Assembly: GCA_965228475.1 (NCBI GenBank)
Contig: OZ245817.1
Span: 3,840,001-3,904,000, forward strand
Source: Myxococcota bacterium
Lineage (GTDB): Bacteria; Myxococcota_A; UBA9160; JAFDDA01
Reading direction: 5' to 3'
DNA: 64,000 bases
Positions 1-15,651 of this stretch are shown here, piece by piece. A program made the position numbers and the translations under genes. Each line of letters starts with the position of its first letter. Positions within the stretch are counted from its first letter, which is position 1. The notes beneath the pieces are model-generated. The model was not told where the DNA came from. It did no database searches and was given only the letters and a program-made list of their open reading frames with translations.

Positions 1-327
1 GGTCGAGAGCAGCTGTTCCGGGGTCTGATCTTCGCGGTCGTAGGCGCGCAGCCCTTCGAGGAATTCGTCGACCTGGTCGGCCATGCGGTCGGTGGCGGCG
101 GGCGAGAGGTCCTCGAGATCGTCAGAGTAGAAGTCGAGACCGTAGGGGTCGAGGATCCGGCCGTAGGAAAGCAGCATCGGGTGCTCGAGGACGAACTGGG
201 CCAGCACGCGCAGGTAGTAGTGCTCGATCTTCCAGGGCTTGCCGAAGAGCGTCGGCACGAGAAAGACCGCCGCCGCGAGCAGCAGCATGGCCACGACGGC
301 GGCGAGGGTCCGGCCGAGGTTCGCCAT
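1..327 (-). CDS. 5' part of probable DUF885-family protein (runs off window start)
   Basis: Manual translation MANLGRTLAAVVAMLLLAAAVFLVPTLFGKPWKIEHYYLRV...; N-terminal hydrophobic anchor; ATG overlaps TGA of upstream gene. Confidence 0.6.
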   Translation of the reverse strand, partial: MANLGRTLAAVVAMLLLAAAVFLVPTLFGKPWKIEHYYLRVLAQFVLEHPMLLSYGRILDPYGLDFYSDDLEDLSPAATDRMADQVDEFLEGLRAYDREDQTPEQLLST

Positions 328-1322
328 CAGGTTCCGCGCGGACCGAGGCCCGCCTTCTCGTAGACCGCGTCGATCACGCGCATGTTCGCGACGGCGTCGT
401 CGACGTCGGTCGGGAATGGGGCACCGTCCCGCACGGCCGCCTCGAAGGCGCGGAGCTGGAAGAGGTAGGTCGGCTCACGCGAGAACGTCTCGGGCCGCTT
501 GCCGTCACGCTCCGTGTCGAGGACGAGCCGGTGATGGACCTGGGGCCCGAGCGGGTTGAAGACCCGCAGCTCGCCCTCGTCGCCGACCACGCGCGCCCGG
601 ATCTCGAGCAGCCGGGCCGAGAAGAGCGAACATGTGATGCGGCCGGTCGCACCGCTCGCGAAGTCGAAGGTCGCCCGCATGAAGCGGTCGACCCGGGGCC
701 GCGCGAGCCTGGCTTCGGCCGTCACCACCTCGATCGGCTCCTCTCCCGCGAGGTGGCGGAGCATGTGGATCGTGTAGCAGCCCGTGTCCATGAGGGCGCC
801 GCCTGCGAGATCGAGGCGGTAGCGGATATCCCCGGGAAGCGGCAGCGGAATGCAGAGCGACGTCTCGACGTGACGGATCGTCCCGAGCAGCCCGAGCCGG
901 CAGATCTCCACCATGCGGCGCCCGAGCGGGTGGTAGCGCCAGTGGAAGGCTTCCATGACGACGCGGTCGCTCTTGCGCGCGGCCTCGGCCACGCGCTGGG
1001 CCTCGGGCGCGTTCGAAGCGAAGGGCTTCTCGCAAAGGACGTGCTTCCCTGCGGCGATCGCACGCTCGGTCCACTCGGCGTGGAGGCCGTTGGGCAAGGG
1101 GATGTAGACCGCGTCGAGGTTCGGGTCCTCGACGATCGCCTCGTAGCTCTCGAGCGCGCGCGGGATGCCGTGCTTGCGCGCGAAGGCGGCGGCGCGGGTG
1201 GCATCGCGCGCCGCGACCGCGCTCACTTCGACGCCGGGCACGTTGCGGGCCGGGCGCAGGAGCGCCATCGGGGTGATCCGCGCTGCACCGAGGACACCGA
1301 TGCGAAGGGGCTCGCGGCTCAA
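327..1322 (-). CDS. Gfo/Idh/MocA-family oxidoreductase
   Basis: IGVLGAARI Rossmann start, HVLCEKP, GGALMDTGCY motifs; TTG start after GAGGAG. Confidence 0.9.
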   Translation of the reverse strand: MSREPLRIGVLGAARITPMALLRPARNVPGVEVSAVAARDATRAAAFARKHGIPRALESYEAIVEDPNLDAVYIPLPNGLHAEWTERAIAAGKHVLCEKPFASNAPEAQRVAEAARKSDRVVMEAFHWRYHPLGRRMVEICRLGLLGTIRHVETSLCIPLPLPGDIRYRLDLAGGALMDTGCYTIHMLRHLAGEEPIEVVTAEARLARPRVDRFMRATFDFASGATGRITCSLFSARLLEIRARVVGDEGELRVFNPLGPQVHHRLVLDTERDGKRPETFSREPTYLFQLRAFEAAVRDGAPFPTDVDDAVANMRVIDAVYEKAGLGPRGT

Positions 1323-1390
1323 GAGGGATGGCTCCTCATGGACCCGGGAGTCTGACACATTCACGACGGGGATTGGAACGGGCACCGCGG

Positions 1391-1450
1391 CCCCATCGGC
1401 GCACCCGTCGCCCTATCGGCGCACCCGTCGCCCTATCGGCGCACCCGCCG
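1391..1450. repeat. 20-bp tandem repeat x3 spanning kinase stop codon
   Basis: CCCTATCGGCGCACCCGTCG unit, first and last copies with one mismatch each. Confidence 0.9.
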
Positions 1451-2419
1451 GGCACGCCAGGCACGCAGCTCGGTCACGAACTTGTGGACCGTCGCAAAGC
1501 GGTCGTCGGGGTCCTTCGCCACCGCCTTCATGCAGAGCTCTTCGAGGTCTTCGGGGATCGTCCGGTCCGGCGCGCGCTCCGAGGGCGGCACCGGGGTGAC
1601 GTTCCGGGCGTTGTCGCAGATCTCCTGCATGCTGTTCCCCTCGACCATGGTCTCGAGGGTCAGGCTCTCGTAGAGCACCGCACCGAGGCTGTAGAGATCC
1701 GAGCGGCCGTCGATGTCCGGGCAGCGTTCGATCTGCTCGGGCGACATGTAGGGCGCGGTCCCCTGGAGCTGGCCCTGCCCCGTCATGTGGATCGTGCCGC
1801 CCTCGATGCCCGCGCTCGACTCTTCGTCCTCTTCCTTGGCGTTCCACACCTTGGCCAGGCCCCAATCGAGCAGCATCACTTCGCCGAAGGGTCCCATGAG
1901 GATGTTCGCCGGCTTGACGTCGCGGTGGATGACGCGGTGGCTGTGGGCGTAGTCGAGAGCATGTCCGATCTGGATCAGAATGCTCACCATGCGGTCGAGG
2001 CCGTAGCCCTCGATGAAGTAGAACTCGGACTCGCGCGACTGGTCGATCACCTCGCGCAGGGTCATCCCGTGCACGAGCTTCATGGTGAAGTAGTACTGGC
2101 CGTGGTTGTTCCGGTTGAGCTCGTAGATCGGGATCGTGTTCGGGTGCTGCAGCATCGCGGAGACGCGCGCCTCCCGCAGGAAGCGCTTGGTCTCGAGCGG
2201 ATCGTTCACGAATTCCTTGCGCAGACTCTTCATCGCGACCGTGCGGCCGAGGTAGAAGTCCTTGCAGGACTGGATGACGCACTTGCCGCCCTTCGCAACG
2301 GTCTTGAAGCCCGTGTAGCGCAGGGACTTGTTCTGGACGTGGTCCGGAAGGGGTACGTCCGTGTCTTCGAGGTGGACGTCCGGGTAGTCGTCCTGGCTCT
2401 CCGGGAACTCGCGGGGCAT
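1433..2419 (-). CDS. Hanks-type Ser/Thr protein kinase (stand-alone kinase domain)
   Basis: VAMK, HRDVKPANIL, DWG, GTAPYMSPEQ, DLYSLG motifs; start chosen at MPREF. Confidence 0.9.
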   Translation of the reverse strand: MPREFPESQDDYPDVHLEDTDVPLPDHVQNKSLRYTGFKTVAKGGKCVIQSCKDFYLGRTVAMKSLRKEFVNDPLETKRFLREARVSAMLQHPNTIPIYELNRNNHGQYYFTMKLVHGMTLREVIDQSRESEFYFIEGYGLDRMVSILIQIGHALDYAHSHRVIHRDVKPANILMGPFGEVMLLDWGLAKVWNAKEEDEESSAGIEGGTIHMTGQGQLQGTAPYMSPEQIERCPDIDGRSDLYSLGAVLYESLTLETMVEGNSMQEICDNARNVTPVPPSERAPDRTIPEDLEELCMKAVAKDPDDRFATVHKFVTELRAWRARRVRR

Positions 2420-2551
2420 GGGCTGAACGTATCGGGCGCACGGCCACGGCGCCTCAGTTCCGGACCCTGCCCGGGCCGATCCGTGCCGTCTCGAGGGCCC
2501 CCTGGCCCGTCCTCGAACCTGGGCCACCCTCGGCCCGTTCGCGCTTTTCAT

Positions 2552-2590
2552 TGCACAATTCTTAGGCAGCCCCTGCCGCGGAATCGGGCA
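2552..2590 (+). promoter_or_regulatory. Tandem NtrC-type enhancer boxes
   Basis: TGCACAATTCTTAGGCA (2552-2568) and TGCCGCGGAATCGGGCA (2574-2590), both TGC-N11-GCA, 22 bp apart, upstream of a sigma54 promoter. Confidence 0.55.
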
Positions 2591-2649
2591 GAGATTCCTC
2601 CCGAACCGCCCGGAACGGCTGTAGAATCGCCCTGCGGCGCATCCCCGCC

Positions 2650-2664
2650 TGGCACGCGACTTGC
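2650..2664 (+). promoter_or_regulatory. sigma54 (-24/-12) promoter of glutamine synthetase
   Basis: TGGCAC-GCGAC-TTGC, exact consensus spacing. Confidence 0.8.
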
Positions 2665-2807
2665 CATAGTGGATCGTCATTCAGTGGGGGCTTCGGACGG
2701 GACGCCGTCCGGAACTGTGCAGCTCGGGGCCCATCGGTGCTCGAATCGCCCTCCCAGCTGATCAGCAACGGAATGAAAACGACCATCCTCGAGGAGGACG
2801 ATTCGAA

Positions 2808-3833
2808 ATGGGTGACAAAGCGAAGCTCGAATACATCTGGCTGGACGGCTACAAGCCGACCCAGAGTCTTCGCAGCAAGACCAAGGTGGTCGAGGACTTC
2901 TCCGGCAAGCTCAAGGACGTGCCGGAATGGTGCTTCGACGGTTCTTCCACCGAGCAGGCCGAGGGCAACGACTCCGACTGCCTGCTGAAGCCGGTCGCGA
3001 TCTACCCGGACCCGGGCCGGAAGAACGCCTTCCTCGTGATGACCGAGGTCCTGAACGCCGACGGCACGCCGCACGAGTCCAACGGACGCGCGACGATCGA
3101 CGACGACGACGACGACTTCTGGTTCGGCTTCGAGCAGGAGTACACGATCTGGGACGACGAGCATCAGCGCCCCATCGGCTTCCCGCAGCACGGGTACCCC
3201 GGCCCCCAGGGCCCGTACTACTGCTCGGTGGGCGGCCAGAACGCCATCGGCCGCGAGATCGTAGAGGAACACCTCGATCTGTGCCTCGACGCCGGCATCA
3301 ACGTCGAAGGCATCAACGCCGAGGTGATGATGGGCCAGTGGGAGTTCCAGGTCTTCGCCAAGGGCGCCAAGAAGGCCGGCGACGAGACCTGGGTGGCTCG
3401 CTACCTGCTCGAGCGCGTGACCGAGAAGTACGGCTACAGCATCAACTGGGAGCCGAAGCCCATCAAGGGCGACTGGAACGGCTCGGGCATGCACGCCAAC
3501 TTCTCGAACGAGCTGCTCCGCACCTGCGGCAGCCAGGCCGTCTTCGAGCAGATCTGCAAGGCCTTCGAGCCGGTCGTGGCCGAGCACATCGCCGTCTACG
3601 GCGCGGACAACGACCAGCGGCTCACGGGCCAGCACGAGACCCAGTCGATCGACAAGTTCAGCTTCGGGGTTTCGGACCGGGGTGCGTCGATCCGCATCGG
3701 CGCTCTGACCGTCGAGAACGGCTGGAAGGGCTGGCTCGAGGATCGGCGCCCGGCCTCGAACGCCGACCCGTACAAGGTCGCCGGCCGCATCGTGAAGACG
3801 GTGAAGGCGGCGAGCGAGCAGGTGAAGAAGTAG
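2808..3833 (+). CDS. glnII: Glutamine synthetase type II
   Basis: 341 aa; LEYIWLDG, FDGSST, GFEQEY, NAEVMMGQWEFQ, DWNGSGMH, RGASIR, EDRRPASN; GAGGAGG RBS. Confidence 0.93.
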   Translation: MGDKAKLEYIWLDGYKPTQSLRSKTKVVEDFSGKLKDVPEWCFDGSSTEQAEGNDSDCLLKPVAIYPDPGRKNAFLVMTEVLNADGTPHESNGRATIDDDDDDFWFGFEQEYTIWDDEHQRPIGFPQHGYPGPQGPYYCSVGGQNAIGREIVEEHLDLCLDAGINVEGINAEVMMGQWEFQVFAKGAKKAGDETWVARYLLERVTEKYGYSINWEPKPIKGDWNGSGMHANFSNELLRTCGSQAVFEQICKAFEPVVAEHIAVYGADNDQRLTGQHETQSIDKFSFGVSDRGASIRIGALTVENGWKGWLEDRRPASNADPYKVAGRIVKTVKAASEQVKK

Positions 3834-3859
3834 TTCACCGGCTTCGGTCGAGAACGACG

Positions 3860-3897
3860 CGGGCGTCCGGCGCGAGCCGGGCGCCCGTTTCCTTTTT
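3860..3897 (+). terminator. Rho-independent terminator after glnII
   Basis: CGGGCGTCCGGC-GCGA-GCCGGGCGCCCG hairpin followed by TTTCCTTTTT. Confidence 0.8.
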
Positions 3898-3908
3898 GGG
3901 GCCGGACG

Positions 3909-4517
3909 CTAGGCCTTCCGCGTCCACCACACCTTGTTGGCTTCGAGTCGGACGGGGTGCGGGTGGTTCGCGAAGACGCGGTCGACGGCGCGCTTCACGC
4001 CAGGGTGGTGGGGAGCGCCGTAGTCGTGGCCGGCGATGACGCCGCCGGCGCGCACCTTGGGCAGCCACGCGGCGAGATCGCGCAGGACCCACTCCTCGGA
4101 GTGATCCGCGTCGATGAAGACGAGGTCGAAGGATTCGTCGGCGAAGTCCTTGGCGGCCTCGTCGGACCAGCCCTGCCGGAAGGTGATGCGCGGTTCGTCG
4201 GCGAAGATGTCGGGGAGCAGCGGCGGCTCGAGGTCGATGGCGACGAGCCGCGCGACCTGGGGGCAGTAGCGCGCGACGTGGCGGGCGGTGCGCCCGGTGC
4301 GGGTTCCGATCTCCGCGATCTCGAGGGCGCCCCCTTCGAGCTCCTCGTGGACGAGATCGACGAGCACGTGCTGGCGGCGACGCTTGTCGCTCCGGTCCTC
4401 GGGGCGGAGCGGCACGCTGCGCTGGATCCGCTCCTGACCCTTGCGGCGCCGGAAGCCCACCAGCAGCGGCTTCCACGCATGGCGCAGGCGGCGGTAGATC
4501 CGTTTGCGGAGTTTCAT
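3909..4517 (-). CDS. Class I SAM-dependent methyltransferase (Methyltransf_24-like)
   Basis: AEIGTRTG, FDLVFIDADH, GGVIAGHDY motifs; start MKLRK chosen. Confidence 0.82.
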   Translation of the reverse strand: MKLRKRIYRRLRHAWKPLLVGFRRRKGQERIQRSVPLRPEDRSDKRRRQHVLVDLVHEELEGGALEIAEIGTRTGRTARHVARYCPQVARLVAIDLEPPLLPDIFADEPRITFRQGWSDEAAKDFADESFDLVFIDADHSEEWVLRDLAAWLPKVRAGGVIAGHDYGAPHHPGVKRAVDRVFANHPHPVRLEANKVWWTRKA

Positions 4518-4587
4518 CGGGCCCTCACCGCGGGCACGATACAAGACGATGCGGCGCCTTCGCTGCGCGGCGGAGCGCCCCGGGGCG

Positions 4588-4729
4588 CAGAAACGACAAG
4601 GCCCGTGCGCTGTCCGAGACCCGAGCCACCCCTGGAGAGTCTCAGCCCGCGCACGGGCCGCCATCGTTGTCGTTGTCTGCAAACCTTCCCAGGTTTTCGT
4701 TCCCAGGCGGCGTCTCCGCCTGATGACCC
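4588..4729 (-). ncRNA. Candidate sigma54-dependent structured small RNA or 5' leader
   Basis: Three hairpins (4704-4722, 4681-4696, 4592-4674) directly downstream of a consensus sigma54 promoter; ends in UUGUCGUUUCU. Confidence 0.5.
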
Positions 4730-4737
4730 GGTACTAG

Positions 4738-4753
4738 AGCAACCCCCGTGCCA
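4738..4753 (-). promoter_or_regulatory. sigma54 promoter
   Basis: Minus strand TGGCAC-GGGGG-TTGCT, perfect consensus. Confidence 0.8.
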
Positions 4754-4770
4754 GCCGGCGCCGTAAGCCG

Positions 4771-4794
4771 AAATCCTTTGAATTCAAGGGTTTA
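4771..4794. promoter_or_regulatory. AT-rich palindrome / IHF-like site upstream of sigma54 promoter
   Basis: AAATCCTTTGAATTCAAGGGTTTA; ATTCAA-GGGT-TTA has one mismatch to WATCAA-N4-TTR. Confidence 0.45.
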
Positions 4795-4947
4795 CGCGAC
4801 CGCTCCTGGGGCCGAACCCGGACGTTTTTCGGCACCCGGACCGGCAGGCTGAAGGCAATCGCGCCCTCAACTGATGCCGTTGCGGGCCTTCCGGTCGCTG
4901 GAAGCGCGTTGACCGGTGCAGGTGGAAAGTGCGGTTCCGGCCCGTGC

Positions 4948-6021
4948 TCACACGCCGGCGAGCTGGCGATAAAGGCCTCGCATCCGCCTGGCCGAGTCGG
5001 TCCAGCGAAGGGCCTGGACCCGGTCGAGTCCGCGCTTGCGCAGGTCCTGGGCCGCCGCCTCGTCGTAGACCAGCCGCTCGATGGCGTCGGCGATCGCGGA
5101 GACGGAGGTGGGATCCGGCCGAGCTGCCCCTTCGCCGACGACCTCCGGCAATGAAGCGGCCGAGGAGGCGACGGTGGGGGTCCCGACCGCCATGGCTTCG
5201 AGCACGGTGAGGCCAAAGCCTTCATAGAGGCTCGGCGCCGCGTAGACGCGCGCTCCAGCCATCAGGGCGACGAGCGTCTCGTCGTCGACCGGGGGCAGCC
5301 GCAGCGTGCGCTCCTCCATCCGGTGGCGAACGATCGCCTCCCGCAGGCCGCTCTCGCCATCGCTCGGATGCCCGACCAGCACCAGGCGCAAGCCCGGGAC
5401 ACGCGCAACGGCCGCGACCAGCCGCGGGAGGTTCTTGCGAGGCGTAACGACGGCCACGGCCAGCGCATAGTCACCCAGACGCTGCCTCATGCTGCGTGCG
5501 ACGGACTCGTCCGGTGGACGAAAGCGTTCGAGATCGACGCCGAGCGGCACGGGGTGGACTCGGGACGCCGGCAAACCGTACTGGTCGCAGACCTCTTCGG
5601 CCGTGAAGCGGCTGTACGTCACGACGTGGTCGGCGCGATCCACCGTTTCCCGGATTCGTTCGCTTCGCCGCGCGTGCCAGCCGGGCCTCACCCATTGCGG
5701 GTTGCGGACGGCATTGAGGTCGTGGACGGTGACCAGCTTGAGCAGGCGGCGCGGGGTGCGCGGCAGGTAGATCCCCATCGAGTGCAGCATCCGGTCGCCC
5801 CGGAGGAGTACCCGATTGACGGGGTCCTGGATCCACCGGAGATGCACGTTCTCCGCGTCGGGTCGGAAGAGGCCTCCGCGCTTTCGCCGCGAGAACCGGT
5901 AGCAGAGGTCGTAGCGTGTCTCGGGGTCGGTTCGAACCAGTTCGGTCACGAGGCTTCGGATGGCGCGCGGGATCCCACCGTGACGGTGCCCCGCGGCGCT
6001 ACTGACTTCGAGTGCGATCAT
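4948..6021 (-). CDS. Glycosyltransferase family 4
   Basis: VTVHDL, PRKNL, PSLYEGFGLTVLEAMAVG motifs; alternative start 6051. Confidence 0.9.
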   Translation of the reverse strand: MIALEVSSAAGHRHGGIPRAIRSLVTELVRTDPETRYDLCYRFSRRKRGGLFRPDAENVHLRWIQDPVNRVLLRGDRMLHSMGIYLPRTPRRLLKLVTVHDLNAVRNPQWVRPGWHARRSERIRETVDRADHVVTYSRFTAEEVCDQYGLPASRVHPVPLGVDLERFRPPDESVARSMRQRLGDYALAVAVVTPRKNLPRLVAAVARVPGLRLVLVGHPSDGESGLREAIVRHRMEERTLRLPPVDDETLVALMAGARVYAAPSLYEGFGLTVLEAMAVGTPTVASSAASLPEVVGEGAARPDPTSVSAIADAIERLVYDEAAAQDLRKRGLDRVQALRWTDSARRMRGLYRQLAGV

Positions 6022-6193
6022 GCGCGGCGAGGATTGCAACGCAGGTGCCATCCTCCGCGGGCCTCTCGTTCGACTCTGCGCTCGCCGGGACGCGCCGTAC
6101 TGCATGATCCGGCTGGGTCGCGCTGGCTCCGGCGGTGCCGTCGGAAAACCCACGCTCCGACTGCCGACATCGGCGCGGCTCACGGCGCGCAAT

Positions 6194-7195
6194 TCAGCCC
6201 GGCTCCGTGAAGCGCCCTCGCATCGACGCAAGGCCCGCGCGGCGCGCCGCGCGGTCGATCCCTGATGCGCGTTTCTCGTCGTCGATCCAGACATCGGTGT
6301 AGTGGCCGCGCGAACCGCACGCCCGCGCGCTCAGCTTGCGCGCCGCCCCTCCCCACCCGAACCGAAGCCTCCTCATGGGCCACGCGGGAATCGATCCATG
6401 ACCGCCCCCGACCCAATCGATGCGCCCGCCCTCCGCGAGCACTCCGCGAACGCGGGCTCGCGCGTCGAGATTCAGCGATGCCGAGCGCGGCGTCACGAGA
6501 AGGACCCGCCGTCGCGCATCCGGGTAGCGCTGGAAGTACCGCTTCCGGTTCGCGGCTCGGAGCGCGGTGGTCTCCGGAAGGGCCGAGAAGGAACCGTGGC
6601 CCGCGTGCTCGACCGCGGCGTGGGGATGCACGCCGATGCGCCAACCGCGTGCCGTCCACTTCCGCGACAGGTCCAGGTCCTCGAAGTATCCCCGGCCGAA
6701 GCTCCCGTCGAAGCCACCCACCTGGAAGAAGGCGCTGCGCCGCACGAGGAAGGCGTGGGCCCAGAGCCCGTAGCTGCGGACGTAGCCGGACTCGCGCTCA
6801 TAGTCCGAGAGATCTCTCCCACGGCCGTCTCTCGGTGAGACCGCGGCCAGGGAAGGGTCCCGGCGAAGCGCTTCGGCAAGGGGGGAGACGAAGTCGTCGG
6901 AGAGCACGACGTCCGAGTTCAGCACGAGCACGAACTCCGATCGCGTCCGCGTGAGACCCCGGTTCACGGAGCGGGCGAAGCCGGTGTTGCGCGGAACCGA
7001 GTGAACCCGCAGCCGAGGATGCTCGAGGGCCGCGAGACCCTCCCGAGTCGGCGTGCCCGAGGCATCGTCCTCGACGATGACCCGGGCGATGCGGTCCGGG
7101 ACCGAAGCGTACAGAGAGTCGATGCAGCGGCAGGCGTGCGCCACCGCGTTGTAGACGGGGATCACGACATCATGGCGCTCCGTGTCCCGGGTCAC
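6194..7195 (-). CDS. Glycosyltransferase family 2
   Basis: VVIPVYN, EDDAS, NTGFARSVNRG, LNSD, GYFEDLD motifs. Confidence 0.88.
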   Translation of the reverse strand: MTRDTERHDVVIPVYNAVAHACRCIDSLYASVPDRIARVIVEDDASGTPTREGLAALEHPRLRVHSVPRNTGFARSVNRGLTRTRSEFVLVLNSDVVLSDDFVSPLAEALRRDPSLAAVSPRDGRGRDLSDYERESGYVRSYGLWAHAFLVRRSAFFQVGGFDGSFGRGYFEDLDLSRKWTARGWRIGVHPHAAVEHAGHGSFSALPETTALRAANRKRYFQRYPDARRRVLLVTPRSASLNLDARARVRGVLAEGGRIDWVGGGHGSIPAWPMRRLRFGWGGAARKLSARACGSRGHYTDVWIDDEKRASGIDRAARRAGLASMRGRFTEPG

Positions 7196-7995
7196 GGAAG
7201 GGGCCGCCAGGCGTAGATCAGGAGGGTTGCACCGCGAAACGGGACCGCGGCGAACCCCGAAAGGGCCGGGTCGGCATCGATGTCCGGCGACGAAGCGCCC
7301 GCGAAGACCCGGGTCGTGAACCCCGCCTGGAACAACCCTTCGAGAGTCTCCGGCAGGGCCGACGCACCGGCGCCGCGCTCATGCCATTCACAGACGATCC
7401 GCCCGACCCGCTCGCTCGCCCCGCTCGCGACCAATCGACGGAGCACCTCGCCTTCCGCACCCTCGATGTCGAGTTTCAACAGATCGACGCGCTGGCTGCA
7501 CAAGTCCGCGATATCGAAGCACGGAACCTCGATTCCTCCCCGTGGGTGCAGGTGCCCCGTATCCCCGCCACGGGACTGGAATCGCATGCGGCCCCCCTCG
7601 GACCACACCGCGCCGGCGAGGCCCTCGGTCCGAGCGTCGCCCTGAGCGCGCAGGTTCGTCTCCAGAATCGCAGCGAACTCGGGATCCGCTTCGATGCAGC
7701 GAATCGTCGCTGCGGGGTAGCATCGTCGGAACCGGAGGGCGGCGAGCCCGAGGTTCCCTCCACAATCGAGGATGCTGGGGGAGCGATCCGCGACGTGGAA
7801 GTCGTAGACCCGGCGGTGGAAGATCTCCTTGAACTGGGCGTAGAGAGAGCGCCCGTCGACGTACTCGAATTCAGCGCCGAACAGCCGTGTCCGACCCGGC
7901 CGCCCTCTCGGCTCGTTGCGGAGGCGGCGCAGCCGGCGAAGTGCGGATCTCTCGTCTTCCCGCCGCGCCAGCGTGTGGCCGAGCCACCCGGTCAT
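7192..7995 (-). CDS. FkbM-family methyltransferase
   Basis: ILDCGGNLG, IEAD, LLKLDIEGAE motifs; ATGA coupling with upstream gene. Confidence 0.88.
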   Translation of the reverse strand: MTGWLGHTLARREDERSALRRLRRLRNEPRGRPGRTRLFGAEFEYVDGRSLYAQFKEIFHRRVYDFHVADRSPSILDCGGNLGLAALRFRRCYPAATIRCIEADPEFAAILETNLRAQGDARTEGLAGAVWSEGGRMRFQSRGGDTGHLHPRGGIEVPCFDIADLCSQRVDLLKLDIEGAEGEVLRRLVASGASERVGRIVCEWHERGAGASALPETLEGLFQAGFTTRVFAGASSPDIDADPALSGFAAVPFRGATLLIYAWRPLP

Positions 7996-9134
7996 CCGGA
8001 GGGAGCCTCGGGGGTGGACACGACGTTCTCCCCGTTCGCGAGGGGCCGATAGATCTCGTCCTCGAGGCGCGGGGCGACACGATCCCAATGAAAGCGGTCC
8101 CGAGCCCGGTTGCGCGCCGCCTCTCCGAAGCGGGCGCAGACCTCTGGACGCTCGAGCATCCCGGCCATCGCTCGAGCGAAGCCGTCGCGGTCGCCCACCG
8201 GGCACAGGAGCGCAGTCCGGCCCTCCTCCACGCACTCCGGATTCCCGTTCACCCGGCTCGTCACGGCGGCGATTCCGAGAGCCTGAGTCTCGAGCAGGAC
8301 CTGGTCCATGTTGCCACTCGCGTTGGGATGAAGGAGCAGCGAGGCCCCTTCCAGACGGGCCGGGAGGTCCTCGTTCGGCACGAAACCTCGGAATCGGACC
8401 CGCTCCGCAATGCCGAGCGCTCGCGCGCGCCCCTCGAAGTCGTGGCCGCGGGGCAGCGTTCCGAAGCACTCGAGCGTCGCGTTTCGCTGCTTCGGGATGC
8501 GTGCGAACGCATCGAGCGCGACCTCGACGCCTTTCATGTTGACCAGGACGACGCGTGGCGCCTCCTTCCCGCGCGGCATGGCCGAGGCGCCACCGGTGCG
8601 AAACCAATGGCTGCCGATCCCGTAGGGGATCACGTTGAAGCGGGACGGATCGACGCCGTAGCGGTCCCCGAGCGCACCTGCGAGCCAACGTGTCGGCGTC
8701 AGCCGGACCGGCGCACACTTCACCGCCATCGCGAGGTACTTCCAGCGCCAGTTGGAGGAACGAAGCGGTGCAGCAGAGACCTCGGGGACGTGGAACTGCG
8801 CGACCATCGGAAGGCGGCCGATGCCCGCCCGATGCGCTGCGCGGCTCCGAAGCCCGAGGAACGACCCGGCGACGTAGTGCGTATGGATCACATCGAAACT
8901 CGCGAGGCGCCGGAGCGCGTAGCGCAGTGGATAGAGGCGCTTGGCCCGGGCGCCCAGGTAGATCATCCGCACGCCGTCGATCGAGACCCGGTGATCCGGA
9001 CGGGCGACCTGCAGGAAGGTCACCCGGTGCCCACGGTCCCTGAGCGCTCGCACCAGCCCGTGGATGAACACGTGGGCCCCGAGAATGTTCGCCCGGTGGT
9101 GATAGCCGGCGACCAGCACGGACAGGCTCCTCAT
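7992..9134 (-). CDS. Glycosyltransferase family 4
   Basis: GT-B features: DVIHTH, VIPYGI, KGV, VLLETQALG. Confidence 0.85.
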   Translation of the reverse strand: MRSLSVLVAGYHHRANILGAHVFIHGLVRALRDRGHRVTFLQVARPDHRVSIDGVRMIYLGARAKRLYPLRYALRRLASFDVIHTHYVAGSFLGLRSRAAHRAGIGRLPMVAQFHVPEVSAAPLRSSNWRWKYLAMAVKCAPVRLTPTRWLAGALGDRYGVDPSRFNVIPYGIGSHWFRTGGASAMPRGKEAPRVVLVNMKGVEVALDAFARIPKQRNATLECFGTLPRGHDFEGRARALGIAERVRFRGFVPNEDLPARLEGASLLLHPNASGNMDQVLLETQALGIAAVTSRVNGNPECVEEGRTALLCPVGDRDGFARAMAGMLERPEVCARFGEAARNRARDRFHWDRVAPRLEDEIYRPLANGENVVSTPEAPSG

Positions 9135-9273
9135 GGTCTGGCTTCCTTCGCGCATGCCGGGCGCCCGCGGAGGGTGGCGCCGCGTCCGGGGGGAGCCGGA
9201 ACGCGGCGCCGGACAGGACCGCTACTTCCCGTCCGAGAAGAGACTCGCTCGCCTCGGCGTTGGTGAAGGGCAC

Positions 9274-9289
9274 TGCAACGCGGGTGCCA
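9274..9289 (-). promoter_or_regulatory. sigma54 promoter of glycosyltransferase operon
   Basis: Minus strand TGGCAC-CCGCG-TTGCA, perfect consensus, ~140 bp before the GT4 start. Confidence 0.8.
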
Positions 9290-9355
9290 GCGTCCTGCCG
9301 CTCCCGTGAAGCCAGGAGCCCGCACGAGAGCCGTCGCCTCCAAAACCCGCCTGCG

Positions 9356-9375
9356 GTCTGCCGAGATCGGCAGAC
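9356..9375. promoter_or_regulatory. Perfect palindrome, candidate enhancer (UAS)
   Basis: GTCTGCCGA-GA-TCGGCAGAC, ~70-85 bp upstream of the -24 box. Confidence 0.5.
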
Positions 9376-9508
9376 GGACCGCCGGAATCGGCGGGCCACG
9401 GGCGCTCCGAGCCCCTTCTCCTTCCGGCTCCTGGACGACACCGGGCACGGATGTTGCGAGTTGGATCCGACCGGGGCGGGCACCCGATTGGGTGCGCCGC
9501 GCGAGGCG

Positions 9509-9949
9509 TCAGTGCGTAGCGGAGATCTCGAAAAGGACCCGTACGGAGTCGTCGGCAACCGCCGGGTCGACGTAGCCGATCGCGGCGCGCTCGGTCGCGA
9601 CGAAACGGCGGACGGCCTCGCCCGAAGCGAGCGTCGCAGGAGGCAGGACTCCTTGGAAGTACTGGCGGTTCCAGTAGACGGCGAGTCGGCTCGGCGAGGT
9701 CTGCAGAACTCGCGAAACGAACTCGGCGCGGATCGCGCTTCCCGCCTCCCGGTTCACGGCCACGATCCGGGTCCCGTCTTTCCAGAAGCGCCGTTGCTTC
9801 AGGTAGACCTGGACGATCTCCGCCGCGTCCAGGCGATCGGATCGTTCCGGGTGGACGATCACGGCGATGCCCTCGGCCGTCGCAGAGCCCGCCGCGAGGA
9901 GCGCCGTGAGCGCGACGAGGCCGACGACGAGGGAGCGCAGCAGACCCAT
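9509..9949 (-). CDS. Small periplasmic PBP-like protein (phosphate-binding-protein-like half domain)
   Basis: Signal peptide; IAVIVHP...YWNRQYFQGVLPP...AIGYV pattern. Confidence 0.7.
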   Translation of the reverse strand: MGLLRSLVVGLVALTALLAAGSATAEGIAVIVHPERSDRLDAAEIVQVYLKQRRFWKDGTRIVAVNREAGSAIRAEFVSRVLQTSPSRLAVYWNRQYFQGVLPPATLASGEAVRRFVATERAAIGYVDPAVADDSVRVLFEISATH

Positions 9950-11101
9950 TCAGAACAGCACCGAGAGCGAAGCGGTGACGCCTTCTACGACGTCGTCGGT
10001 CACACGGTCCGAAAACCGGTAGCCCGCCTTGAGATTCAACCACGGCACGGGCAGCCAGCTCACACCGACGTCCCAGAGGCTCACGTCGTTGCCCTGGCCG
10101 TCGGGGTCGAAGTGCTCGAAGCGGGCGACGAGATAGACGTTGTCGAGGAAGGGCACAGCGCGGAGGTCGTAGACCCCTTGAACGTAGACGGACCACAGAT
10201 CGCGGTCCGGAATGCTCCCCTCGGAGAACACCGCTTCGCTGGTCACCTCGAGCGGGCCGAGCTGGACCATCCAATCGAAGCCCGCGAGGTAGCTCCATTC
10301 GTTCTTCTGCTCCGCGGCGAGCAGGGAGGCACCGATCGACCAGCCGCCGAGGGCGTTGCCATACTCGAGCCGGGCGCCGGCCGTTCGCTCGGCGGTCTCG
10401 AAGTCCGGGTCCGGGTCGAGGGGATCGATGAGCTGGGCGTAGACCCACCAACGAAGCGTTTCGTTCCCGGGATAGAACGTTCCGAACAACGCCGCGCCCG
10501 TCTGATGCTCTTCGAAAGCCCGGTCGATCTGGACGGGCTCGACGGCCGTCCAGACGAAGGGCTCTGCGGGAACCAGGTTCCAGCGCCCGACCGGAGTCTG
10601 GAACTTTCCGATCCGCAGGTTCAGTGCATCGTTGTAGATCCAATCCGCGTAGAGGCGCTCGACGACGATGTCGGGGTCGTGATCGAAGTCGTCCCGTTCT
10701 CGATCCCAGGAAGCGAGGTCACCGAACTCGACCTCGGCGAAGAAGCGGAGCGGCTCGATCGGCTCGAACAGGATGAGCAGGTTCACGCTATCGAGCTCGA
10801 CGGTCGTGCCACCCGGTGCTTCGTCGTCGATCTCGACGATGCTGAAGCCGCCGACGGTCAGCCCGGTATCGCCGAGCCGGATTCCCCGTCCCGCTCGATA
10901 CTCGAAGGCACCGAGCGGCGTGGAAAAGGAGAGCCGCGGCGGTGTGCCCCCGGCGCCAGGGCCGATCGGCAGCGTCGACTGAGCCTGCACACCCCCCGAA
11001 GCGAGCAGGACGGCGGAGACGAGCGCTCCCACGAGCCCGCGCTTCGACCGCTTCGGCAGAGTGGTAGATTCGTGTTGGGATGTCGTCACGGCACGGAACA
11101 T
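9950..11101 (-). CDS. Outer-membrane beta-barrel/porin-like protein
   Basis: Signal peptide ending VQA-Q, alternating beta strands, RIGKFQTPVG, C-terminal Phe; start uncertain (11101 or 11089). Confidence 0.7.
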   Translation of the reverse strand: MFRAVTTSQHESTTLPKRSKRGLVGALVSAVLLASGGVQAQSTLPIGPGAGGTPPRLSFSTPLGAFEYRAGRGIRLGDTGLTVGGFSIVEIDDEAPGGTTVELDSVNLLILFEPIEPLRFFAEVEFGDLASWDRERDDFDHDPDIVVERLYADWIYNDALNLRIGKFQTPVGRWNLVPAEPFVWTAVEPVQIDRAFEEHQTGAALFGTFYPGNETLRWWVYAQLIDPLDPDPDFETAERTAGARLEYGNALGGWSIGASLLAAEQKNEWSYLAGFDWMVQLGPLEVTSEAVFSEGSIPDRDLWSVYVQGVYDLRAVPFLDNVYLVARFEHFDPDGQGNDVSLWDVGVSWLPVPWLNLKAGYRFSDRVTDDVVEGVTASLSVLF

Positions 11102-12911
11102 GACTCGGCAACCTGAGGACCAGAGGGAAGGAACATCCTCCCTCGCGCGGACACGGACCTTTCTACCCGCTCGAACGATCGGGAACAAGCTCCTGTTGTT
11201 CGTCGCCGTCCTTCTGACGTCGTTCGGTGTCCTTCTCATCACCATCGCGGAGCGGCACGGCAGCGACTCGCTCGAGCGTGCGATCGGACGGGAGCTCGAA
11301 CGCGAGGCGCGCCACGTCGCCGGTCGACTCTCGTCCATCCTCCGCACGGAGCAGCGAACGCTCGCGAGTTTTGCACGGCAGGATTGGATGCGGGAGATTC
11401 GCGTCGGCGACATCGATAAGCGAATCACCCAGGCCCTGGTCACCCTTCGCGATGGCAGTCCGCTCCGGGTCGACTACCAGGTCGTGGATGAGGCGGGCCG
11501 GGTCGTCGCATCGAGCGACGCCGGCGCCCTCGGCCAAAGGTCGACGATCGGCCTCGGGGCCGGCGAGGCAAGGCTCGAGGGGGACCGGTTGTGGATCAGC
11601 GCCCGCATTCCCGACCCCGATGCGACGCAACGCTCGCTCGGCGTCCTGTTCGGCGTCCTCGACTGGAAACAACTGACCTCGTACACCGAGGAGGTCCGAG
11701 AAGAACTCGCGGGTCTCGGGCTCGCATCCGAGATCTTCGTATGCGACGCCGGGGGCCGCGTGCTCGGCGGTGCCTGGGAAGCGGCGCCCTCGGAAGCCGT
11801 GGCACGGATGCTCGCCGCCGTCGTCGCTGGGGACCGCATGTCGCCGCTCGCGAGCCCGTGGATCGTCGGACATGCCCGCTTCGCACCGGACCTGCCCGGG
11901 ACTCTGGCCGGACAGCACCTCATCGTCGTCGAGCATCGAAAATCCGCGCTCGCTCCGGTTCGCGCCCTCTCGGGGCGACTGTTCGCCACGCTCGGCATCG
12001 TTCTCCTGCTCGGCTTGGCGGTCGCGAGTTTCGGGGCCCGCCAGGTCGCTCGCCCGCTCTCGGAACTCACCGGGGCGATCCGCGGTCTTGCTCAGGGGAA
12101 AGCGGAGACCCGGCGCGTTCCGGTCCGGAGCGACGACGAGGTCGGCACGCTGGCTGCGGCTTTCAACCAGATGGCCGGCGACCTCGACCGGGCTCAGCGC
12201 GACCTCATCGAGGCGGAGAAGTTCGCGTTCGTCGGCGAGCTGGCCGCCGGCGTCGCGCACGAGATCCGGACCTCGCTCGGGGTCCTCCGGAGCTCCGCGC
12301 AGCTCCTCGAGCAGTCGCTGCCCACCGACGCGGACGGGCAAACCAGCGAACTGGCTCACATGCTCGGTGCCGAGGTGGACCGTCTCGCCTCCGTCGTGAA
12401 CGACCTCTTGACCCTGGACCGCCCCCACCCGCCGCGCCTCGCATCCGTCCGGGTCTCGGATCCGCTCGCGCAGGCCGTCGCCCTGGTCGCTTCGAGAGCG
12501 GCCGAGCGCTCCATCACGATCGAGCAGGTGCCGGCCCCCGACGAACCGGCCGTTCGCTGCGAGTCCGAGCTCATCCACCGCGTGGCCGTCAATCTCCTCG
12601 TGAATGCGATGGAGGCCGTGGGAGAAGGCGGTTCCATCGTGATCGAGACCCTCGACGGTCGCGGCGGCTGCGGGGGGTTCGAGATCACCGATGACGGACC
12701 TGGCGTTCCGCCGGAGCTTCGAGAGAAGATCTTCCAGCCGTTCGTCACCGGGCGAGCCGGCGGAGTGGGGCTCGGCCTGACGTTCGTGAAACGCGTGATC
12801 CACGACCACCACGGCCAGATCATGGTCCGGTCCGACCCTACGGCGGGAGCGACCTTCCGGGTCGAGCTGCCGCTCGCCGACGACCCGAGCGAACCCGAAG
12901 GCTCCGCGTGA
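11100..12911 (+). CDS. Membrane sensor histidine kinase (periplasmic sensor, HAMP, HisKA, HATPase)
   Basis: Two TMs, DEVGTLAAAFNQM HAMP, AGVAHEI H-box, NLLVNA, DDGPG, GVGLGL; start uncertain. Confidence 0.92.
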   Translation: MTRQPEDQREGTSSLARTRTFLPARTIGNKLLLFVAVLLTSFGVLLITIAERHGSDSLERAIGRELEREARHVAGRLSSILRTEQRTLASFARQDWMREIRVGDIDKRITQALVTLRDGSPLRVDYQVVDEAGRVVASSDAGALGQRSTIGLGAGEARLEGDRLWISARIPDPDATQRSLGVLFGVLDWKQLTSYTEEVREELAGLGLASEIFVCDAGGRVLGGAWEAAPSEAVARMLAAVVAGDRMSPLASPWIVGHARFAPDLPGTLAGQHLIVVEHRKSALAPVRALSGRLFATLGIVLLLGLAVASFGARQVARPLSELTGAIRGLAQGKAETRRVPVRSDDEVGTLAAAFNQMAGDLDRAQRDLIEAEKFAFVGELAAGVAHEIRTSLGVLRSSAQLLEQSLPTDADGQTSELAHMLGAEVDRLASVVNDLLTLDRPHPPRLASVRVSDPLAQAVALVASRAAERSITIEQVPAPDEPAVRCESELIHRVAVNLLVNAMEAVGEGGSIVIETLDGRGGCGGFEITDDGPGVPPELREKIFQPFVTGRAGGVGLGLTFVKRVIHDHHGQIMVRSDPTAGATFRVELPLADDPSEPEGSA

Positions 12912-14295: not shown

Positions 14296-15651
14296 TCAGT
14301 GCAGATCGTCGAGCCCGTGGCGGCGGAGCTTGTTGCGCAGGCCGACGCGCGAGAGGCCGAGGGCCTCGGCCATGCGCGTGCGGTTGCCGTGGAAGCGATC
14401 GAGCGCGTCGCGCAGGACCTCGCGCTCCACCTGGTCGAGGCGCTCCTTGAGCGTTCCGGCGCGGACGGGCGCGTCTTCGACTTCGGGTGCGTCGCCGGCC
14501 CCGAGCCCCGCACCGACCTGCTCGCCGGGGGCCGTCAGGGCGATGGCGCGCTCGACGGCGTTGCGCAGCTCGCGGACGTTCCCCGGAAAGTCCTTCTGCG
14601 CGAGGTCTTCGAGGAACGATTCGTCGAGGGTGATCTTGCGCGCGTGGTCGTCGCCGAACTCCTCGGCGAAGTGCTGGGCGAGGAACGGGATGTCGACCCG
14701 TCGGCGGCGCAGGCTCGGCACGAACAGCGTCGCCGTATTCAGGCGGTAAAGGAGGTCCTGACGGAAGCTCCCTTCCTCGACCATCTCCTTCAGGTCGCGG
14801 TGGGTGGCCGAGACGACGCGGACGTCGACCTGCTTCACCTCCGTCCCGCCGACGGGACGGATCTCGCGGGCCTCGAGGGCGCGCAGGAGCTTCGTCTGGA
14901 AGGCCGGCGACGTATCGCCGACCTCGTCGAGGAGCAGCGTCCCGCCCTCGGCTTCTTCGAACAGGCCCCGCTTGTCCCGGTCGGCCCCGGTGAAGGCGCC
15001 GCGCACGTGGCCGAAGAGTTCGCTCTCGAGGAGCGTATCCGGCAAGGCGCCGCAGTTCACGGCGACGAAGGCCCGGCTCGCGCGCGGGCTTTCCTCGTGG
15101 ATCGCGCGCGCGACGAGTTCCTTGCCCGTGCCGGTCTCGCCGAGGATGAGGACGGGGATGTTCGACGTCGCGAGCCGGCGGACCTCTTCCATCAGATCCC
15201 GGATCGCCTTCGAGACGCCGAGCAGGGCCGGCGCACGTCGGTGGTTGTGTCGCGCTCCCTCGCCGACCTTCCCGGCGGTGGGAAGACCGTTGCGGAGGGC
15301 CAGCCGCAGCGCCGCCGGGGCCGGGTCCGCAGCGAGCACCGCGTGGGGCCGGAGCTCCTCGATCGCGAACTCCAGGGCGGCCTCGTCCGTCCCCTCGGAG
15401 AGCAGGATGATCGCGCGGCCCGCCGGGAGATCCCGCAGCGCGACGAGATCGCGGGCGTCCTGGCCGGGGTCGAGCTGCACGACGGCGGCGTGGGCATCCA
15501 CGAGGGGGCCCCGCGTCCCGAGCGCCTCGGGCGCCACGGGGCGCACGGCGAACTCGGGCACCAGGGCGGCCGCGATCGCCTGCTGGCGGCGCGGCTCGGT
15601 GGCCACCGCCAGGACGAGGGCTCGGGGTGGCTTCGTCTCGGGCTTTCCCAT
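14296..15651 (-). CDS. sigma54 enhancer-binding protein with degenerate receiver-like N-terminus
   Basis: GETGTGKE, GAFTGA, LLLDEVG, Fis-type HTH; N-terminus lacks the DD/D acidic pocket. Confidence 0.9.
   Translation of the reverse strand: MGKPETKPPRALVLAVATEPRRQQAIAAALVPEFAVRPVAPEALGTRGPLVDAHAAVVQLDPGQDARDLVALRDLPAGRAIILLSEGTDEAALEFAIEELRPHAVLAADPAPAALRLALRNGLPTAGKVGEGARHNHRRAPALLGVSKAIRDLMEEVRRLATSNIPVLILGETGTGKELVARAIHEESPRASRAFVAVNCGALPDTLLESELFGHVRGAFTGADRDKRGLFEEAEGGTLLLDEVGDTSPAFQTKLLRALEAREIRPVGGTEVKQVDVRVVSATHRDLKEMVEEGSFRQDLLYRLNTATLFVPSLRRRRVDIPFLAQHFAEEFGDDHARKITLDESFLEDLAQKDFPGNVRELRNAVERAIALTAPGEQVGAGLGAGDAPEVEDAPVRAGTLKERLDQVEREVLRDALDRFHGNRTRMAEALGLSRVGLRNKLRRHGLDDLH

Follow-up and report, generated by a model that had tools for sequence, protein, structure and literature searches.

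Between a GT4 glycosyltransferase gene and a methyltransferase gene, the window (the whole stretch analysed, 64,000 nucleotides) holds an intergenic region for which the earlier note had proposed a sigma54-transcribed small RNA with several hairpins (Table 1). The source genome (5.0 Mb, 70% GC) is referred to below as G000; positions in the window are on the minus strand unless stated. The hairpins, the U-rich tail, two copies of CCUGGGAA (at 4707 and 4693) and four GGA motifs described in that note are all present, and the ATG at 4517 indeed lies 210 nt from the predicted +1 (4727). The region folds strongly: for 4585-4728 the folding energy is -82 kcal/mol (z = -5.9) and 0/200 shuffles do as well. 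Judged by sequence, the element has its own promoter and 3' end, both RNA ends being predicted ones, and no conserved reading frame. The gene is single-copy in a search of G000.

Table 1. Features of the predicted RNA gene and its surroundings (positions in the window)
Feature	Position	Strand	Remark
Methyltransferase (Methyltransf_24)	3909..4517	minus	directly downstream in G000 only
TATCGT, -10-like box	4536..4541	minus	could be the methyltransferase's own promoter
Predicted non-coding RNA, ~135-140 nt	4589..4727	minus	ends deduced from sequence
Pyrimidine-rich (U-rich) tail	4589..4599	minus	
P3, long stem with inner CUGAGAC/GUCUCGG helix	4600..4659	minus	
A/C-rich linker	4660..4680	minus	CAACGAC and ACGAUGG conserved
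P2 hairpin, AAACCU-GGGA-AGGUUU	4681..4696	minus	open GGGA loop
CCUGGGAAGG in P2	4693-4684	minus	10-nt complement to the S seed CCUUCCCAGG
Second CCUGGGAA copy	4700..4707	minus	8-nt complement to the S seed, G000 only
P1 hairpin, UCAGGCGG/CCGCCUGG	4703..4723	minus	
Sigma54 -24/-12 promoter, TGGCAC-N5-TTGCT	4738..4753	minus	kept in 4/4 sequences reaching it
AT-rich, presumably IHF-like box, TAAACCCTTGAATTCAAAGGATTT	4771..4794	minus	
Enhancer dyad 2	4900..4914	minus	161 nt upstream of TGGCAC
Enhancer dyad 1 (GGAA-N7-TTCC type)	4924..4938	minus	185 nt upstream of TGGCAC
GT4 glycosyltransferase	4948..6021	minus	upstream neighbour; belongs to the block that now lies between activator gene and RNA
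Sigma54 enhancer-binding protein, 451 aa	14296..15651	minus	AAA+ with GAFTGA, Fis-type HTH

Among 61 related genomes searched, a single one, G001 of the same genus as G000, has a full homologue. A pattern scan of metagenomes returned eight matches, three of them homologues (L027, L028 and L031) and five due to chance; a scan of species genomes returned 17, one of them true (L088, labelled Deltaproteobacteria MAG). L088 is counted once together with G001, and the homologues besides that of G000 are four. With a model built on the five sequences (R1) strong matches appear in 2/150 genomes of the order, at a sensitivity limited by scoring only 21 candidates per genome. Viral sequences gave 0 matches for the RNA. 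When 401 genomes of the phylum were searched for promoter plus P2, the sole further match, L080, proved to be the promoter of a pilin gene. The RNA family looks confined to one genus-level group, as far as these sequence searches reach. The lineage is uncultured as far as the data show.

Within this group the RNA is highly conserved. Its blocks are 91-100% identical vs 49-63% for synonymous sites of the neighbouring genes (at 4-fold sites, identity is 0.49-0.52 for the activator gene, 0.54-0.63 for P450 and methyltransferase genes). P2 with its 5' flank is identical in all pairs (18/18); the pattern used for searching contained P2, so that its invariance was built in for L027, L028 and L031, and only G000 and G001 count as independent. 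The P3 block has 61-67/67 identical positions in all 10 pairs; three one-sided changes occur in P3, pairing being kept in all, and its 18-nt apex, which holds CUCC, is invariant. Among homologues one pair of P1 is altered on both sides. In total, 148 of the 149 alignment cells are paired, with one two-sided and four one-sided changes. Covariation is not significant (99/500 shuffles reach it, with five sequences). No sequence difference was seen between the three contig sets compared. The AACGACAA/UUGUCGUU extension and the second CCUGGGAA are peculiar to G000 among the homologues compared. The tail at 4589-4599, which a simple scan for terminators passed over, is likely a weak intrinsic terminator. 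In G001 and L031 a second hairpin with its own tail comes 3' of P3, and the G000 tail resembles the second-hairpin tail of L031, as if the hairpin had been deleted between GGGCC repeats. Directly 3' of the RNA, L028 carries a 25-nt unit three times in tandem, which repeats the 3' tail of the RNA. We hold with high confidence that the element is a real, conserved, sigma54-dependent non-coding RNA gene.

This RNA is undescribed in Rfam 15. An Rfam scan, which the earlier note had proposed as a check, gave no match to any family, Pxr included: at gathering score there is none in the window and none for the four homologues. With the threshold relaxed to E 10, the only family overlapping the locus is mir-3926 (E 1.2). 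At this threshold the Pxr model (RF01812) finds nothing over window 1-12000, and its best scores in G000, 15-16 bits for a cut-off of 80, lie elsewhere. The cobalamin riboswitch model (RF00174) does not match at 4589-4727; it gives 113 bits for a true riboswitch of G001. Resemblances to kink-turn, T-box and SRP motifs, considered by consensus only, were dropped. The window contains neither tRNA nor tmRNA. A search of literature listings turned up no paper about the RNA, nor any about sponges in this lineage.

The perfect sigma54 motif that the earlier note had singled out is retained in the four homologues, G000 included, that reach it; L027, cut off before the promoter, was left out of this count. 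The strict form TGGCAC-N5-TTGC occurs 27 times in G000. Upstream lies an AT-rich box (TAAACCCTTGAATTCAAAGGATTT, 4794-4771) which, going by the consensus, we take to be IHF-like. The box is there as claimed and its AT-richness is kept, but the palindromic form exists only in G000: a TAA-N4-TTG...GATTTC-like stretch is found in G001 and L031, and a looser one in L028. Another box, GGTGCC followed by a GA(A/G)(A)ATCGTC-like sequence, is found between the enhancer and the IHF-like site (4821-4837, minus strand) in G000, G001, L028 and L031. The window has three further strict sigma54 promoters, at 2650 (plus strand, glutamine synthetase) and at 6050 and 9289 (minus strand, glycosyltransferases).

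The two enhancer dyads keep fixed distances from the promoter. The best sites for dyad 1 are at -184 to -186 in 4/4 homologues whose sequence extends upstream, as well as in G006 and in 6/6 promoters of the genus g21; dyad 2 is at -159 to -162 in the same four homologues and G006, and at -160 in 4/6 g21 promoters. Hence a 15-bp dyad stands at -185 +/- 1 in 11/11 promoters from three families, and a second (-159 to -162) in 9/11. The same sigma54 activator gene is found near 10 of these 11 promoters; for L031 it is not within the 5 kb of sequence examined. The dyad sequence is GGAA-N7-TTCC-like at this locus and in G006, and GACAAC-N3-GTTGTC-like in g21, where the recognition helix of the activator orthologues differs too. 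The tandem dyad pattern occurs three times in G000, once at the RNA promoter. Dyads plus promoter were found in 4/193 genomes at five places (control: 0), two of which precede other protein genes.

The activator gene encodes a protein whose N-terminus has a predicted five-strand receiver-like fold, without a Pfam receiver match in this domain; its best structural matches are NtrX, NtrC4, NtrC1, FleQ and LuxO. The end of the gene lies 202 nt upstream of the promoter in L028, ~1.5 kb in G001 and 9.5 kb in G000. Orthologues are present in 20/193 genomes of the order. At 7 of the 19 orthologue loci outside G000 a sigma54 promoter lies within ~250 nt downstream (G006 and the six g21 genomes). That of G006 drives a secreted-protein gene. 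In 6/6 g21 genomes (L107-L111, L128) a C-rich RNA of ~80 nt follows the activator orthologue at 190-220 nt on its 3' side; it has a terminal GC stem with one compensatory pair, and is devoid of the S-complementary site described below. For this g21 RNA no Rfam match was found at the five loci scanned, and neither model R1 nor alignment scores, set against 117 controls and shuffles, support homology with the RNA at 4589-4727. Because of the fixed distances of the dyads, the orthologue loci and the tandem-pattern search, the RNA promoter is very likely real and the protein encoded at 14296-15651 is likely its activator, as predicted from sequence. Since related boxes are seen at -102 to -135 of PEP-CTERM-type promoters in G000, the activator may cross-talk with these promoters. 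At G000:C1:3071242 (+) and L142, a sigma54 promoter and a structured leader precede a cysteine-rich small conserved protein (MKRGVGYCEN...), in two families.

The genes around the RNA change from locus to locus. Upstream neighbours differ in 4/4 loci showing them. On the 3' side a P450 gene follows in G001, L027 and L031, and the truncated gene of L028 begins like a P450. A methyltransferase gene comes after the P450 gene in L027 and L031; G000 would therefore have lost P450 yet kept the RNA (the best match of the P450 in the G000 genome is 49%). Each downstream gene is preceded by a -10-like TAnnnT box, 7-8 nt from the ATG in the four relatives (TATGCT/TATCCT) and 18 nt in G000. Such a box 6-9 nt before the start is found for 424 of the 4390 G000 genes obtained with a simple gene caller, which suggests that leaderless transcription is frequent in this genome. 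Between the glutamine synthetase and methyltransferase genes lies a terminator hairpin (3836-3895, plus strand), with a weak Rfam match to BjrC68, below cut-off. The changed neighbours, the -10-like boxes of the downstream genes, and the extra hairpin with its tail favour a stand-alone RNA gene. The stand-alone sigma54-dependent small RNA that the earlier note put forward is supported by these sequence comparisons.

P2 of this RNA is complementary to a small C-rich RNA, here called S, encoded by two G000 genes (G000:C1:964214, plus strand, and 4270940, minus strand). G000, G001 and G002 have two copies of S each, and every copy ends in a terminator. A 16-mer of S is found exactly in 34/70 genomes of the order (control: 0), and S has no Rfam match. 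Upstream of S genes (also L160-L164 and L193-L197) a conserved TGACAC-N16/17-CCAC resembles a promoter for an alternative sigma factor. The match with S emerged post hoc, when the RNA was compared with six candidate strands at four loci. Complementarity between P2 and the S seed is 10/10 nt in G000 and G001, with both S copies. Between the 26 invariant windows of the RNA and the 15-nt core of S, 7.5e-4 perfect 10-mer matches would be expected, a figure that has to be multiplied by four for the loci tried. The net RNA-S pairing energy is -10.1 to -11.1, matched by 2, 4, 0 and 2 of 60 shuffled RNAs; three of these four pairings go through P2, and in one the best duplex joins the P3 apex with a stretch like the promoter of S. 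Opening P2 costs ~6 kcal/mol, its GGGA loop being free.

The site is not the strongest one for S. Its duplex energy in G000 (-21.3) ranks 62nd among the 357 TGGGAAG sites of the genome, and stronger duplexes are computed for several PEP-CTERM leaders (-25 to -29) and for another decoy candidate (-31.5). With the best S copy the P2 site of the relatives reaches -23.6 to -24.3: in all four, bases following P2 lengthen the S duplex. These are lost in G000, which has instead the second CCUGGGAA, for which a pairing of -15.0 kcal/mol with S was computed. Both P2 and S are invariant; compensatory changes linking the two were not observed. Of three further candidate small RNAs in G000, two pair weakly with the RNA; for the third, at 4577119, a possible match between its 3' flank and the P3 apex gives -12 kcal/mol.

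The RNA carries the same site as the predicted mRNA targets of S, which are PEP-CTERM-like leaders. Within 45 nt of the start, TGGGAAGG is found for 5/109 PEP-CTERM-like genes vs 8/4281 others (p = 9e-6), where the PEP-CTERM-like genes were chosen by a simple pattern and the targets of S are themselves predictions. CCTGGGAAGG has 23 occurrences in G000, of which 13 fall in intergenic DNA, which makes up 9.7% of the genome; among the 13 are both S genes (with the word on the opposite strand), a cobalamin-riboswitch-like site and the RNA at 4589-4727. CUGGGAAGG is also present in cobalamin riboswitches, and the word thus recurs for other reasons: the cobalamin-riboswitch-like leader at G000:C1:2524595 (+) has a full 10-nt S site, and its G001 counterpart is the one scoring 113 bits above. 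Further intergenic S sites away from called starts are at G000:C1:4132258 (-), 369154 (+), 3095141 (+) and 4621819 (-); 4132258 repeats AACCU-GGGA-AGGUU and 4621819 has three spaced copies of CTGGGAAG. A sigma54 promoter followed by an S site was found in 5/70 genomes, corresponding to the present RNA twice, to short hairpin RNAs (G000:964000 and one in G015), and to two mRNA leaders, one of which belongs to a PEP-CTERM protein gene. The G015 locus (L187, G015:C109:256-370, plus strand) is an independent RNA of decoy-like build, made up of a sigma54 promoter, a hairpin, a single-stranded 12-nt complement of the S seed and a terminator; no exact S 16-mer turned up in this genome. Homology of the RNA to the two other decoy-like RNAs was rejected, the scores being only 13 bits (E 0.02, out of register) and 5.4 bits.

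These matches suggest that the RNA is a decoy, or sponge, for S, which would free mRNAs of PEP-CTERM surface proteins from their predicted repression; we give this reading a probability of about 50%. The activator would bind the dyads at -185 and -160 and open the promoter once its receiver-like domain is triggered by a signal. An RNA of ~135 nt would be transcribed, ending at the tail after P3. The GGGA loop of P2 would catch the S seed and zip up into the 10-bp duplex, a predicted pairing for which the complementarity is observed; in the relatives the duplex would extend further, and in G000 the second 8-nt site would be offered to S. S would be titrated or destroyed, and repression lifted from the leaders bearing the same site. 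Homologues of KhpA/B, whose domains are present in 3/3 genomes tested, could assist; Hfq and ProQ were not found by homologue search. P3, the most conserved part of the RNA, is unexplained by the decoy reading. More tentatively, one may picture a layered circuit in a lineage without Hfq, in which S, often duplicated, would repress PEP-CTERM mRNAs and unrelated sigma54-driven decoys with their own enhancers would release it on different signals, the present RNA being the decoy of a dedicated pseudo-receiver activator.

Other roles have to be weighed against this. The RNA could pair with mRNAs in trans through the linker or the P3 apex, as Pxr might, the match with S being due to chance or only allowing S to control the turnover of this RNA. 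The layout is that of pxrR-pxr as described in PMC5568312 and PMC10217877, the linker words and the 18-nt apex with CUCC are invariant, and the RNA at the matching g21 promoter is C-rich and seed-like. Scans in G000 nevertheless failed to single out targets. With the linker, the top five of 4390 translation-start regions reached -12.8 to -11.1, and 5/6 shuffles equalled or surpassed these five taken together; with the P3 apex the top-ten mean was -29.85, and 23/40 controls were as good. We consider this role rather unlikely. Both strands of P3 are conserved in sequence and compensatory changes are nearly absent, as is often the case for helices read by proteins; this would fit an RNA that binds a protein, e.g. 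KhpA/B (domains of which are encoded in the genomes tested) or a nuclease, P3 being the binding site. But the exact complement to S is then left unexplained and no partner was identified, and we hold this to be improbable. The earlier note had also put forward a sponge for CsrA/RsmA on account of the GGA motifs. Their number was correct, but they are not enriched: four in the G000 RNA for a shuffle mean of 3.6 (P = 0.49), and 2-4 per RNA in the family, not above shuffles (P 0.49-0.97), compared with the 22 GGA given for CsrB in PMC7652899. GGA does lie in the loops of P1 and P2, and the P1 loop of the 4/4 relatives, ANGGA with a variable N, resembles the ANGGAN loop described in the same source, but each RNA has 0-1 ANGGA and that of G000 none. 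The genome check that the earlier note had advised did find csrA in G000; the gene is located in a flagellar cluster beside a fliW-like gene, and FliW is described as a protein antagonist of such CsrAs (PMC7652899). Moreover G001 (89% complete) has the RNA and neither a csrA nor a flagellin match, whereas G002 (81% complete) has csrA and no match for the RNA. A sponge for CsrA appears very unlikely.

The region could also act in cis, as a leader or attenuator of the downstream gene. It is on the same strand as the next gene in 5/5 loci, its tail is weak as a terminator and escaped the scan, and P450 comes next in three relatives, probably in the fourth. These points are outweighed by the retention of the RNA in G000 despite the loss of P450, by the -10-like box in front of every downstream gene, by the lack of a sigma54-driven copy before 29 other P450 and 4 other methyltransferase homologues, and by the fact that no conserved antiterminator was seen. 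A role in cis is thus of low probability, and the attenuator of the methyltransferase suggested by the earlier note is a weak proposal, P450 being the next gene in the relatives. Finally, a small peptide or an N-terminal extension could be encoded from the ATG at 4664, a case that the earlier note had named as one against its own reading. This ATG and ~16 codons recur in 5/5 sequences, and in G000 and L031 they share the frame of the next gene. The frames have 251, 58, 229, 65 and 300 codons, most changes are non-synonymous and in G000 a 1-nt indel puts the frame out of register: the frame is not conserved as protein, and coding is hardly credible.

If the decoy reading is true, the locus would provide a complete chain, from the activator to the enhancer, the sigma54 promoter, the decoy RNA, S and the mRNAs of surface proteins, in a lineage without a match for Hfq or ProQ and for which the literature search found no RNA work. 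It would add a post-transcriptional layer to the control of PEP-CTERM genes, which PMC1569441 describes solely in terms of sigma54 promoters and PrsR. One orthologous sigma54 promoter having three different products in three families would also make a clean case for the origin of small RNA genes. The reach of the finding is limited to the one genus-level group in which the RNA is found.

Among known systems the closest layout proposed by the earlier note was that of Pxr, a likeness in architecture without claim of homology. It does hold: an activator gene, a sigma54 promoter and a multi-hairpin RNA follow each other, without a match to the Pxr model. In Myxococcus xanthus, Pxr and PxrR (Nla19) are likewise described as a gene for an enhancer-binding protein, a sigma54 promoter and a small RNA of three hairpins (PMC5684412, PMC5568312, PMC10217877). 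In our family the promoter is directly downstream of the enhancer-binding-protein gene in L028, and separated from it in G001 and G000. Unlike the activator at 14296-15651, which has no Pfam receiver match, PxrR is presented as a response regulator with a cognate kinase. Pxr also differs in being 108 nt long, processed and confined to Cystobacterineae, according to these sources and PMC11928866; its own targets are still predictions in the account of PMC11928866. CrcZ with CbrB is another reported case of a sigma54-driven small RNA behind an enhancer-binding protein (PMC8657755). CsrB and RsmZ share with the present RNA the GGA in hairpin loops, but have many of them by the description in PMC7652899, while here two are conserved, and the RNA and csrA do not track each other across the three genomes tested.

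In function, if the decoy reading holds, the RNA would work like two known sponges. In Vibrio cholerae, the gene of the sponge QrrX is reported to lie directly behind that of its own activator QrrT, with dyads at the promoter, and QrrX to target several paralogous small RNAs via a conserved seed (PMC9732341). By the same source, however, QrrT is LysR-type, QrrX needs Hfq, for which there is no match here, and it is the targets, not the sponge, that are under the LuxO activator. In Bacillus subtilis, RosA is described as a stand-alone sponge of RoxS and FsrA (PMC8216469). It differs in being 229 nt long, driven by sigmaA and repressed by CcpA, with sponging experimentally shown (PMC8216469), whereas for the G000 RNA everything is predicted: ~135 nt, sigma54 with an enhancer-binding protein, and one conserved site inside a hairpin; no homology is claimed. 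What the two would have in common is the use of G-rich stretches pairing with the C-rich seeds of other small RNAs, and the addition of a second transcription factor to the regulon, as RosA is described to do.
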